Source: an uncultured Bacilli bacterium
Lineage (GTDB): Bacteria > Bacillota_I > Bacilli_A > RF39 > UBA660
DNA: 64,000 bases
NCBI GenBank assembly: GCA_947629315.1
Contig: CANRDB010000001.1
Coordinates: forward strand, 4,829-68,828
Reading direction: 5' to 3'
Numbering within the stretch: the first letter of the stretch is position 1; the number at the start of each line of letters is the position of its first letter. The notes beneath the pieces were generated by a model that did no database searches, was not told the origin of the DNA, and saw only the letters and a list, made by a program, of their open reading frames with translations. The translations under genes and the position numbers were made by a program. Below are positions 29,421 to 30,925 of the stretch, one piece after another.

Positions 29421-29834
29421 TGCCACTTTGAATGGTTTGCAACTGGTTCTACTGGAGATATCGGTCCTACGGGTCCTACCGGTGATATTGGTCCTACTGG
29501 CCCTACCGGTGATGTTGGTCCTACGGGTCCTACCGGTGATGTTGGTCCTACTGGTCCTACTGGTGATATTGGTCCTACGGGTCCTACCGGTGATGTTGGT
29601 CCTACTGGCCCTACCGGTGATGTTGGTCCTACTGGCCCTACCGGTGATGTTGGTCCTACGGGTCCTACCGGTGATGTTGGTCCTACTGGTGCAACTCCCG
29701 CTCTTACTATTGGAACTGTAACCACCGTTGGTCCAGATGAACCAGCTGCAGCTACTATTACTGGAACTGCCCCTAACTTTGTTCTTAATTTAAGTATTCC
29801 ACAAGGTCCTACCGGTCCTGCTGCTGGAGCATAA
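29421..29834 (+). pseudogene. 3' collagen-like gene segment with ([10 protein letters not shown])x8 plus a BclA-like C-terminal domain; in frame with and contiguous to the recombinase stop codon; no start codon
   Basis: Immediately after TAG the frame reads [22 protein letters not shown]…[48 protein letters not shown]. No in-frame ATG/GTG/TTG precedes the repeats. Confidence 0.6.
29463..29690 (+). repeat. 27-bp tandem coding repeats (ggtcctacgggtcctaccggtgatgtt, about 8 units)
   Basis: Direct inspection; each unit encodes GPTGPTGD(V/I). Confidence 0.8.
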
Positions 29835-29839
29835 TCAAC

Positions 29840-30925
29840 ATGAAAATTATTGTTTATGCTATCGCTAAAAATGAAGAACAATTTGTAAATCGTTGGTGTC
29901 AATCTATGAAAGAAGCAGATGATATCTATGTATTAGATACAGGTTCTACTGATAATACTGTGAAACTATTACAAAATAATGGTGTCCATGTTACAGAAGA
30001 AACTATTCATCCATGGCGCTTTGACACCGCTCGAAATATTTCTCTTGCATTAGTTCCTACCGATGTAGATTTATGTGTATGTACTGATTTAGATGAAGTC
30101 TTTGAAACTGGATGGAGAAAAAAATTAGAACAAGAATGGAACCATCAAGCCAATCGAATTTCTTATTCTTATCACTGGCAATTAGACGAAAATAACAAAC
30201 CTATTATTAGTTTTTACATTAGTAAAATTCATACCCGTCAAAATTATTGTTGGACTCATCCTGTTCATGAAGTATTAACTTATTTAGGAAATCATGAACA
30301 AACACAAATTATTGATGATATTCAAGTATATCATTATCCAGATACGAATAAATCTAGAAGTAGTTATCTTCCACTATTAGAATTATCCGTTCAAGAAGAC
30401 CCATCTGATGACCGCAATATGCACTATTTAGGTAGAGAATACATGTATTATGGCTACAATGATAAAGCTATTGACACATTAAAAAAACACCTCAAACTAA
30501 AAAAAGCTACTTGGAAAGATGAAAGATGTGCATCCATGAGATTTATTGCACGATGTTATGCTAGAGAGGGAAAGTATCAAGAAGCTATAGAATGGGTAAA
30601 GAACGCTATTGAGGAAGCACCTTACTTAAGAGACCCTTATATGGAAAAAGCAATGATTGACTATCAACAACAAAATTGGCAAGAAGTCATTCATTCTAGT
30701 TTACAGGCTCTAACAATTGTTAAAAATCAAAAAACTTACATCAATGAATCTTTCTGTCAAAATGAAGTGATTTATGATTTACTTTCCATCGCGTTTTACA
30801 ACCTAGAATTATATTCTTTCTCTGATTTTTGTATCCAAGAAGCCTTAAAATTTTCTCCAAATAATACTCGCTTGATTGAGAATCAAAAAATTATTCAATC
30901 AAAAAGTAGAAAAGGAAATGTATGA
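29840..30925 (+). CDS. Family-2 glycosyltransferase with C-terminal TPR repeats; starts 5 bp after the collagen-segment stop
   Basis: [23 protein letters not shown]…[11 protein letters not shown] (GT2 DxD-type N-domain). TPR-like helices in the C-terminal half. ATG at 29840 lies 5 nt after the TAA at 29832-34. Confidence 0.7.

Follow-up and report, generated by a model that had tools for sequence, protein, structure and literature searches.

Among the closest described systems to the one considered here are the elements that interrupt sporulation genes. In the case of skin (sigK; recombinase SpoIVCA), skinCd of Clostridioides difficile and SPbeta (spsM; SprA/SprB), excision by a serine recombinase in the mother cell restores a late spore-envelope gene. 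In Bacillus cereus ATCC 10987, gerE is interrupted by the gin element, which is 28.6 kb in size and carries three recombinase genes and the recombination directionality factor (RDF) GirX, and its sporulation-specific excision has been shown (Abe et al. 2017, PMC5595907). The attachment (att) sites of gin, SPbeta and skin share an anatomy of a short common core and inverted repeats (PMC5595907). Here, we describe a 64,000-nucleotide stretch of DNA from an uncultured Bacilli bacterium (contig CANRDB010000001.1; “the window” below), in which a 268-codon gene for a collagen-like surface protein (ATG at 18448, stop at 29834) is cut into four plus-strand pieces by three elements, E1, E2 and E3, each with its own large serine recombinase (LSR). 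We have high confidence in the split gene, the three elements and their precise att sites. That these are gene-intervening elements of the skin, SPbeta and gin kind, located in a BclA/SgtA-like locus for a spore-surface glycoprotein, is on balance the account that we favor.

Judged by their sequence, E1–E3 have the structural features of sporulation gene-intervening elements. The gin element is similar in being a non-phage element in a small mother-cell gene, in its excision by an LSR (GirC), in its core and inverted repeats about a crossover dinucleotide and in the open reading frame (ORF) that is restored. However, gin is a single element, whereas here there are three separate elements of 2.8–4.4 kb, with one recombinase each, in a repetitive collagen-like gene. 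skin, skinCd and SPbeta are 14–134 kb (defective) prophages that occur in genes of unique sequence, one per gene, while E1–E3 are devoid of phage genes, have recombinases that are at most 34% identical to anything in phage and plasmid collections and use a target motif that is encoded by a repeat. spsM, like the locus described here, is concerned with spore-surface glycans, and the skin and SPbeta elements are retained in the forespore genome.

Two other groups of elements invite comparison. The nifD, fdxN and hupL elements of heterocyst-forming cyanobacteria (XisA, XisF and XisC, respectively) represent several elements in genes of a terminally differentiated cell, each with its own recombinase at one end. 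XisF is an LSR and is the best NCBIfam match of the E1 and E3 recombinases (68–92 bits, below the cut-off of 375), but the homology is only at the general LSR level, and the heterocyst elements belong to another phylum and cell type; there is no heterocyst-like context here. Tn4451 (TnpX), Tn5397 (TndX) and the SCC ccr cassettes are small to medium-sized cargo elements that are moved solely by an LSR encoded at their end and excise as circles. The best NCBIfam match of the E2 recombinase is CcrB, at 121.8 bits, far below the cut-off of 900. Elements of this type recombine at GA crossover dinucleotides or at the orfX site and bring along genes for resistance and mobilization, without sitting in a host gene that needs to be restored. 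In contrast, E1–E3 have an AC crossover inside a conserved coding motif and split a gene that appears to be under purifying selection. In full-text literature searches, no report was found of recombinase elements that split bclA or collagen-like genes, and neither a survey of regulated gene integrity (PMC7192596) nor a paper on BclA phylogenomics (PMC13188886) mentions such splitting.

The original prediction for this DNA had placed a collagen-like segment at 29421, directly upstream of a glycosyltransferase gene. Its main omission is that this segment belongs to a gene whose start lies 11 kb upstream and which three serine-recombinase elements interrupt. When all six frames were scanned for Gly-X-Y repeats, further plus-strand collagen stretches came to light at 18535–18588, 23149–23265 and 26094–26147, each in a gap between large ORFs. 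The four collagen pieces (Table 1) alternate with three full-length LSR genes, with one cargo gene per interval, and the same short sequence is found on both sides of each interval. The interruptions fall at three different places within the Gly-X-Y region. When the pieces are joined at the common ACTG, the result is an uninterrupted 268-aa ORF of 807 bp in which the Gly-X-Y register is preserved across all three joints. Precise removal of the elements in silico therefore restores a single host ORF, which is colinear from its N- to its C-terminus with six intact homologues (L016 and five database proteins; L numbers denote related loci and contigs, P numbers proteins) at 62–75% identity.

The rebuilt protein consists of a Cys-rich N-terminal domain, a short collagen run, a domain of about 40 aa, a long collagen run and a second domain of about 40 aa. 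It matches Pfam Collagen with an E-value of 6.6e-21, and GPT, GAT and GD(I/V) triplets extend across about 150 residues, forming a GPT-rich Gly-X-Y region of the BclA type. The two copies of the ~40-aa domain share the motif TIGTxTTGxPGT...LNFxIPxG. From piece 1 come the N-terminal domain with its Cys residues, a short run of GPT triplets and the first of these domains (TIGTTTTGAPGT..LNFVIPAGAT). Unexcised, it forms an 89-aa ORF (18448..18717) that reads into E1 and ends ..IPAGAT-DAMS*, with its stop codon at 18715–18717. The N-terminus of the protein is kept in the orthologues L016, L098, L099 and P0121–P0134, and the C-terminus encoded by piece 4 recurs in L015, L016 and L099. The array in piece 4 (29445–29696) has a period of 27 bp, with 9.2 copies and 90% matches according to Tandem Repeats Finder.

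The 27-bp array, counted at 29442–29690, is about five units longer in the window than in L001:1118–1231, an independent metagenome contig from the same strain or species; either copy-number variation or assembly collapse accounts for the difference. Two further plus-strand “collagen” runs, at 31688–31858 and 38771–38872, were rejected as off-frame readings that are not Gly-X-Y coding frames. They run across the parts of two minus-strand genes, 30961..31899 and 36709..38907, that encode N-terminal regions rich in Pro, Ala and Val; the product of 36709..38907 is a clostripain-family (Peptidase_C11) protein.

All three elements share the same simple anatomy: they contain little beyond a full-length LSR gene at one extreme end and one cargo gene, and phage and conjugation genes are absent. 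The three LSRs all fall into PHROG 95 (“integrase”) and have the conserved RLS(K)E catalytic motif, and their stop codons lie 15–22 nt from the cores. Since their pairwise identity is only 30–54%, they represent three distinct recombination systems, and the elements range from unrelated to moderately related. The cores, of 7, 10 and 4 bp in E1, E2 and E3, are direct repeats. In the circularized junctions, made by joining the right end of each element to its left end, inverted repeats are symmetric about the same AC dinucleotide in all three cases. The best symmetric runs at these attP-like junctions comprise 13, 11 and 14 matches in E1, E2 and E3, corresponding to P = 5e-6, 1e-4 and 5e-6, respectively, in a comparison with 200,000 random junctions built from the window, with the center fixed beforehand and at most one mismatch allowed. 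The attB-like joints score at background in the same test. Direct-repeat cores with AC-centered inverted repeats are the anatomy expected of the attP, attL and attR sites of a serine integrase. A shufflon or inversion switch was considered and rejected on the grounds that each core is repeated in direct orientation, that no collagen piece lies on the minus strand and that inverted cassettes are absent.

The cargo of E1 is the OatA-like acyltransferase (18743–20977) that the original prediction took for a nearby gene whose product could further modify a glycan; instead, it is carried by an element inserted inside the collagen-like gene. It matches the PHROG O-antigen acetylase family phrog_6705 (4.6e-33), and its C-terminal part gives a weak SGNH/GDSL-like Pfam match below the cut-off. 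The E1 LSR matches the phrog_95 integrases at 5.5e-84, and its stop codon lies 22 nt ahead of the core.

Small ORFs accompany the recombinase genes of E2 and E3. ORFs similar to the 49-aa ORF of E2 are called in L098 and L102 (47–49 aa), and the E2 ORF is a candidate directionality factor. An ORF of 29–41 aa lies directly upstream of every E3-family recombinase gene that was examined and is conserved in six E3-family elements, with the consensus MKVIxHFxxxGExLxKxIEELLK and a conserved AGAATAAAAT box before its ribosome-binding site (RBS). The 30-aa ORF of E3 could be an accessory or directionality factor, or a leader peptide. None of the small ORFs upstream of the recombinases has a Pfam or PHROG match; an initial guess that they were TnpW-like was dropped when these searches gave it no support.

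Table 1. Features of the split collagen-like gene, its three intervening elements and associated genes. Positions refer to the window unless a locus number is given.
Feature	Position	Strand	Details
Collagen-like gene, piece 1 (5' end)	18448..18703	+	RBS AGGAGG 18434-18439; ATG 18448
Collagen-like gene, piece 2	23150..23266	+	39 Gly-X-Y-register codons, 117 bp
Collagen-like gene, piece 3	26104..26148	+	15 codons, 45 bp
Collagen-like gene, piece 4 (3' end)	29446..29834	+	27-bp-period Gly-X-Y array, second ~40-aa domain; TAA 29832-29834
Intervening element E1	18704..23149		4446 bp; core GCAACTG at 18697-18703 and 23143-23149
E1 inverted-repeat arms	18713-18725; 23122-23134		CATAAATCACAAA; TTTGTGGTTTATG; each 12 nt from AC center
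E1 cargo acyltransferase	18743..20977	-	744 aa, OatA-type O-acyltransferase, Pfam Acyl_transf_3
E1 LSR	21123..23120	+	665 aa; Resolvase, Recombinase and Zn_ribbon_recom; ~140-aa insertion
Intervening element E2	23267..26103		2837 bp; core GGAGCAACTG at 23257-23266 and 26094-26103
E2 inverted-repeat arms	23279-23288; 26076-26085		TTGTCAAAAT; ATTTTGACAA; each 15 nt from AC center
E2 LSR	23282..24796	-	504 aa, all three LSR domains; stop codon within left inverted-repeat arm
E2 49-aa ORF	24768..24917	-	Overlaps start of E2 LSR gene; no Pfam/PHROG match
E2 cargo	24984..26012	-	342-aa zinc-ribbon protein (Pfam); hydrophobic segments looking membrane-spanning
Intervening element E3	26149..29445		3297 bp; core ACTG at 26145-26148 and 29442-29445
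E3 inverted-repeat arms	26159-26169; 29419-29429		AAAGTGGCACT; AGTGCCACTTT; each 13 nt from AC center
E3 cargo	26257..27651	+	464-aa lipoprotein-like coiled-coil protein; followed by hairpin and T-run at 27654-27677
E3 30-aa ORF	27732..27824	+	MMMKVISHFKDNGENLTKVIEELLKNIIQK; ends 6 nt ahead of E3 LSR start
E3 LSR	27831..29420	+	529 aa; Resolvase, Recombinase and Zn_ribbon_recom; TAG stop part of right inverted-repeat arm
E3-family upstream ORF in relatives	L003:9904-9993; L008:6890-6979; L092:7910-7999; L007:1875-2000		
Predicted attB1 junction			...GATTCCTGCAGGAGCAACTGGTCCTACGGGGGC
Predicted attB2 junction			...GGTCCTACCGGAGCAACTGGTCCAGTAGGTCC
Predicted attB3 junction			...GGCCCTACGGGTCCTACTGGTTCTACTGGAGATATC
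Predicted attP1 junction			...GGTTTATGTCTTTGCAGCAACTGATGCTATGTCATAAATC
Predicted attP2 junction			...GACAATGAACTATGGAGCAACTGAACCTTATCTGTTTGTC
Predicted attP3 junction			...GCCACTTTGAATGGTTTGCAACTGCACTCACTTAAAAGTGGC
Glycosyltransferase	29840..30925	+	361 aa; GT2 (GT-A) and TPR; ATG 29840; DLD motif at residues 83-85
SpoIIIAH	12616..13113		Pfam 49.7 bits
GerE-family helix-turn-helix protein	13195..13401		68 aa
Two-domain Germane/GerM protein	13449..14405		Pfam 91.9 bits

The glycosyltransferase (GT) encoded immediately downstream was used to find related loci. A single-protein scan of GTDB gave none, and an alignment-based profile scan then gave 80, nearly all from “uncultured Bacilli” in gut metagenome-assembled genomes (MAGs) of rabbit, human, goat and chicken, some of them complete chromosomes of 1.3–1.5 Mb. 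The GT protein of the window itself was found only on two short metagenome contigs, L001 and L002, with the same arrangement. Most of the collagen genes upstream of GT orthologues are uninterrupted. An example is L016 (7855–8586, 243 aa), which has the same N-terminal domain, both ~40-aa domains and a GPTGPAAGA* terminus 3 nt before the GT; its E1 site is unoccupied, and its collagen gene is without any element. Across related genomes, the number of elements in an orthologous or paralogous collagen gene ranges from none through one to at least two.

In L098 and L099, an E2-type element occupies the site that corresponds to that of E2 in the window. L099 (GCA_947628235.1) has the order spoIIIAH, gerE, gerM, an intact secA, a 5' collagen piece, an E2-type element, a 3' collagen piece and the GT, with gerE 97%, gerM 66% and the GT 64% identical to their counterparts in the window. 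Its 3' collagen piece ends in GPTGPAAGA*, 5 nt before the GT. Besides upp and a uracil permease, the element carries genes for an LSR (57% identical) and for a protein homologous to the 342-aa cargo (74%). The E1 and E3 sites of L099 are empty, and the joint is in frame. In L098 (GCA_947632115.1), secA is followed by a 5' piece that reads through an empty E1 site (..NFVIPAGMNGATGATG..), and the collagen gene is interrupted at GGAGCAACTG by an E2-type element whose LSR is 86% identical to that of E2. L015, from another species, has an E1-type element with an acyltransferase (2610–4844, 50% identical), an LSR (46%), upp and a uracil permease, followed by a 54-bp collagen piece and an E3-family element on the opposite strand. 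In five assemblies (L092–L096), one collagen gene contains an E3-type element (78%) together with another, larger one.

The association also holds when it is approached from the recombinases. Homologues of the E3 recombinase, looked up without reference to collagen, abut a collagen-like coding fragment in all seven contexts, within about 30 nt of the recombinase stop codon, although in L010 this is clear only on inspection. E1-type recombinases end beside ..G(C/A)AAC(T/A/C)GG.. collagen sequence in all four other genomes, and both E2-type recombinases abut collagen-like coding sequence. Three more distant recombinase relatives (34–39% identical; L042, L045 and L085) do not. The E3-family end motifs AGTGCCACTTT and AAAGTGGCAC are conserved and occur in L003, L091, L092, L008 and L010, and homologues of the E3 cargo (455–457 aa) are present in L003, L091 and L092. 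An identical recombinase, P0111, is found in three different collagen genes, which indicates that E3-family elements are, or were, mobile. The presence of upp and a uracil permease in both the E1-type element of L015 and the E2-type element of L099 indicates that cargo has been exchanged among elements. No E3-family relatives were detected in IMG/VR (two scans), and the phage and plasmid collections yielded nothing more than 34% identical to the recombinases.

Several features of the related assemblies were noted in passing. In L102, an independent low-coverage assembly, the E2 recombinase gene has a gap of about 51 nt relative to 24093–24138 of the window and is called as 483 aa rather than 504 aa. 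Many E3-family recombinases are found on contigs of 3–4 kb, and in L091, identical collagen repeats border the element at either end; such repeats explain why short-read assemblies break at these elements. In L043:8797–9984, L056:8748–9911, L075:8666–9983, L011:287–1053 and L017, the collagen gene ahead of the GT consists of several short ORFs in succession. Each ends in ...TIGTVTTGAPGxxASVTITPxx*, and 14–30 nt further on, the next begins with M..YLLNFVIPQGPTG.... As a result, two polypeptides share the ~40-aa inter-collagen domain, which is split at its loop. It is pure speculation that a domain divided in this way might provide for head-to-tail docking of successive collagen trimers.

The four pieces of the interrupted gene are all open and in register. 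Ratios of nonsynonymous to synonymous change (dN/dS) were calculated among interrupted alleles only (the window, L098, L099 and L015), giving 0.13–0.25 for the unique 5' part (82–90 codons) and 0–0.17 for the unique 3' part (46 codons); between L099 and L015, dN in the 3' part is 0 and dS 0.43. An E2-type element is found at the same site in three genomes, with element proteins that are 57–86% and 74% identical, compared to 64–66% for host proteins. Together, the open pieces, the low dN/dS and the host-like divergence of an element at a fixed site argue that the gene probably is still under selection while interrupted, and hence restorable.

The glycosyltransferase provides a link to known spore-surface systems. 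Its assignment to the GT2/TPR class in the original prediction is borne out by Pfam (Glycos_transf_2, 27.3 bits, cut-off 23.3; TPR_2, 34.6 bits, cut-off 27). Its start 5 nt after the collagen stop codon is confirmed by the sequence; a GGAG sequence is located 10 nt ahead of its ATG, within the end of the collagen gene. The DLD motif is invariant in the orthologue alignment, and the protein has the GT-A plus TPR architecture of about 360 aa. A PDB match of the GT domain is GmaR (22ao; E-value 4.9e-6), which transfers O-GlcNAc to flagellin. SgtA of C. difficile is a 358-aa GT-A plus TPR protein whose gene adjoins bclA3; it modifies Thr residues in the BclA3 GPT repeats with beta-O-GlcNAc (PMC7157674). 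Compared by this published description, the GT has the same size and architecture, and it, too, is encoded next to a Thr-rich, collagen-like potential substrate. This arrangement is common: 71 of the 80 GT loci have enough upstream sequence to be informative, and in 50 of these, a plus-strand collagen-like ORF lies within 1.5 kb upstream of the GT orthologue, with the collagen stop codon no more than 150 nt from the GT in 33 cases.

A GPT-rich collagen-like protein beside a GT-A plus TPR glycosyltransferase of about 360 aa is thus common to this locus, bclA3–sgtA and the BclA loci of the B. cereus group. The gene order differs, since sgtA is upstream of bclA3 in C. difficile, whereas the GT is downstream of the collagen gene here. 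BclA3 has a C-terminal membrane region that the rebuilt protein lacks, along with an exosporium leader and BclA_C; in their place, it has the two TIGTxTTGxPGT...LNFxIPxG domains. Among the relatives, the split collagen-like gene of L003 ends in Pfam BclA_C, and L014-type collagen genes have a C-terminal region (GLSAYGGKY...) that is similar by eye. The BclA and glycosyltransferase analogy of the original prediction is therefore stronger than it was stated, in view of the SgtA architecture, the GmaR match, the synteny in 50 of 71 loci and the BclA_C domain in relatives. As the gene itself encodes no leader and no BclA_C, the spore-surface location of its product is a prediction.

The sporulation genes named in the original prediction are indeed present, since Pfam finds SpoIIIAH, a GerE-family helix-turn-helix protein and Germane domains in the window, unlike NCBIfam, which gives no spoIIIAH or gerM equivalog match there. 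The synteny spoIIIAH-gerE-gerM-secA-collagen-GT is conserved in relatives, and in L092, a SigG-like sigma factor and a YlbJ-like protein are encoded beside the split collagen gene. Together, the SpoIIIAH, GerE and GerM genes here and the SigG-like and YlbJ-like genes in L092 support a predicted capacity for sporulation.

Other genes in this neighborhood deserve mention. The SecA-like gene upstream of the collagen gene is divided into two ORFs, 14652..15368 (frame 0) and 15400..18366 (frame 1). Frame 1 is already open at about 15270, and the shift is near an A-run, CTAAAAAAGG, at about 15318–15327. The orthologues are intact in L098 (1151 aa) and L099 (1124 aa); the split reflects either an error in sequencing or assembly or a true frameshift of this strain. 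An 81-aa Gly/Tyr/Asn/Pro-rich ORF at 2189–2434 (..GGNYGGNYGGYNPPYYTNNY) has no family match and a composition reminiscent of spore-coat proteins. It adjoins a homologue of a YlxY-like polysaccharide deacetylase (1275..2135; TIGR02873, 1.1e-11, below the cut-off).

The following sequence of events would account for the locus. Each recombinase, probably helped by a directionality factor, would recombine its own attL and attR, producing a circle and an attB that restores the frame, so that the full protein would be made only after all three excisions. Expression of the restored gene would be driven by its own promoter and would include the gene of the GT2-TPR glycosyltransferase, to which it is translationally coupled; this enzyme would O-glycosylate Thr in the GPT repeats, by analogy with SgtA and BclA3. 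The elements could persist in the germ line if a terminally differentiated cell were the one in which excision occurred. Endospore formers have such a cell in the mother cell, which makes BclA-type spore-surface proteins; skin, SPbeta and gin are the precedents (PMC5595907, PMC4191935, PMC5025042). That the gene is kept functional by excision we consider probable. That excision is specific to sporulation and the mother cell, and the product a glycosylated spore-surface fiber, is a more tentative suggestion, with BclA and SgtA as its models. Expression of the collagen-like gene in the mother cell is suggested by analogy only, from the BclA/SgtA-like locus, the spoIIIAH-gerE-gerM neighborhood and the BclA_C domain in related genomes. 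The timing of excision, the directionality factor and the location of the product on the spore are likewise inferred.

A number of observations weigh against this scenario. An NCBIfam search of the rebuilt protein gave neither an exosporium leader of the TIGR03720 type, which docks to ExsF, nor a BclB-type match; the N-terminus is instead a conserved domain of another kind that contains Cys. Pfam yields Collagen alone, with no BclA_C domain (PF18573, TNF/C1q-like). spoIIIAH lies outside any spoIIIA operon. A regular-expression search found no sigma-E or sigma-K promoter consensus in the right place and orientation upstream of the gene or the recombinases; in a sigma-70 scan, the 57 sites were no more than chance would give (56.9 expected). 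No RDF of a known family was found in the elements by Pfam or PHROG. The pattern for a free or circular attP of the E3 family, AGTGCCACNTT-N12-ACNG-N10-AAAGTGGCAC, had no matches in IMG/VR, and its sole match in JGI metagenomes was rejected as an unrelated high-GC hairpin without a recombinase. There is no intact allele of exactly this gene among 5.8e9 proteins, the best full-length matches being 53–61% identical. With regard to selection, dS is near saturation, the insertions could post-date most of the divergence, and lineages that had already diverged may have undergone site-specific re-insertion. In-frame reconstruction follows automatically from site-specific insertion and alone is no proof of regulated excision. 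Finally, sporulation is a predicted trait of this host, an uncultured gut bacillus with a small genome.

One alternative is a dead gene, in which ordinary integrative elements, with integrases that prefer GGAGCAACTGG (encoding G-A-T-G), have inactivated a dispensable paralogous surface gene and excise, if at all, only for transfer. The target core recurs in collagen arrays, there are many collagen-like paralogues in these genomes, and the uninterrupted genes in most relatives mark the elements as accessory. Their mobility is evident from P0111, their cargo is moron-like (the O-antigen acetylase-like gene, upp and the uracil permease), and an RDF, a sporulation promoter and an excised form were all looked for and none was found. 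However, a dead gene would not be expected to retain four open pieces in register, a 3' piece still coupled to the GT and a dN/dS of 0–0.25 among interrupted alleles. Nor does it sit easily with the E2-type element that has diverged like its host at one site in three genomes, with the gene pieces intact in all, or with recombinases and att arms that are all intact. We regard inactivation as unlikely. A stochastic switch, in which low-frequency excision in growing cells generates subpopulations with a fully or partly restored adhesin, as an irreversible ON state or bet-hedging unrelated to sporulation, is in our opinion improbable. Collagen-like proteins are also vegetative adhesins, and the best NCBIfam matches of the rebuilt protein, far below cut-off, are the collagen adhesins SclB and Lcl. 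The window also contains a sortase and other surface-protein genes, and the missing leader, BclA_C and recognizable sporulation promoters are in keeping with this view. But the excised, non-replicating circle would be lost, so that ON cells lose the element for good, and the retention of three elements, one of them at the same site across species, is hard to see without a split between germ line and soma. The location amid spoIIIAH-gerE-gerM, with conserved synteny, and the resemblance of the GT to the spore-specific SgtA system also speak against such a switch.

The remaining alternatives concern the DNA itself. It is very improbable that the collagen repeats led the assembler to chain together elements from different collagen genes. 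The window probably comes from a short-read MAG, the repeats of pieces 2 and 3 are of the generic GPT type, L001 has another number of 27-bp units in piece 4, and the elements of many relatives are on 3–4 kb contigs that break in collagen repeats. However, the joint between piece 1 and E1 is in unique sequence, and pieces 2 (117 bp) and 3 (45 bp) are short enough for single reads to span. Assemblies of other samples agree with the window: the independent L102 covers 22600–25072 at 100/99.9% identity and reproduces the joint between E1, piece 2 and E2, while L001 reproduces that between E3, piece 4 and the GT. Multiply split genes also occur in other species (L015, and L092–L096 in five assemblies). 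The literal form of the original prediction, with 29421–29835 as a small stand-alone collagen-like gene co-translated with the GT, is refuted by the sequence, although there is a 137-codon open frame that ends 5 nt before the GT start and its Gly-X-Y run (29445–29696) is real. The same frame simply continues from the recombinase TAG (29418–29420), and between there and the Gly-X-Y run, there is no ATG, GTG or TTG in frame, nor an RBS. Because it has no start codon, the segment is not a gene but the start-less last quarter of the split one. Its first eight codons (CHFEWFAT) are the recombinase-binding arm of E3, and the orthologues place the missing N-terminal three quarters upstream.

What is new relative to known systems is the repetitive structural target, the occurrence of three elements, each with its recombinase, in a gene of 807 bp, the tiny size of the elements and the uncultured, reduced-genome host. 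If excision is developmental, a repetitive structural spore-surface gene would be a new class of target for programmed DNA rearrangement, and this would be the first case among spore formers, in the literature searched, of one small gene that needs three separate recombinases. The three compact, mutually diverged LSR/att pairs, with clearly predicted sites, are candidates for orthogonal integrases, which are useful tools in genome engineering, and the family-wide 30-aa ORF is a candidate for a minimal directionality factor. There is also a lesson for annotation: in these abundant gut lineages, annotation of collagen-like genes will go wrong in a systematic way, yielding fragments or pseudogenes. 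Many contig breaks at 3–4 kb are explained by the recombinase elements, and both the elements and their host genes will be under-assembled in MAGs.

For the organisms, the locus supports, without proving, the idea that the reduced-genome, “Mollicutes-like” gut Bacilli still sporulate. More speculatively than any of the above parts of the favored account, it may be that a clade of uncultured, small-genome gut Bacilli builds a gene for a spore-surface collagen glycoprotein by up to three independent programmed excisions in the mother cell. These would be carried out by a previously undescribed radiation of minimal (~3 kb) serine-recombinase elements that are specialized on the G-A-T-G collagen motif, maybe with a peptide of about 30 residues as directionality factor. 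If so, partial excision would lead to truncated isoforms, and how long the spore fibers are, or whether they are present at all, could be adjusted through how many elements are resident and in which combination.

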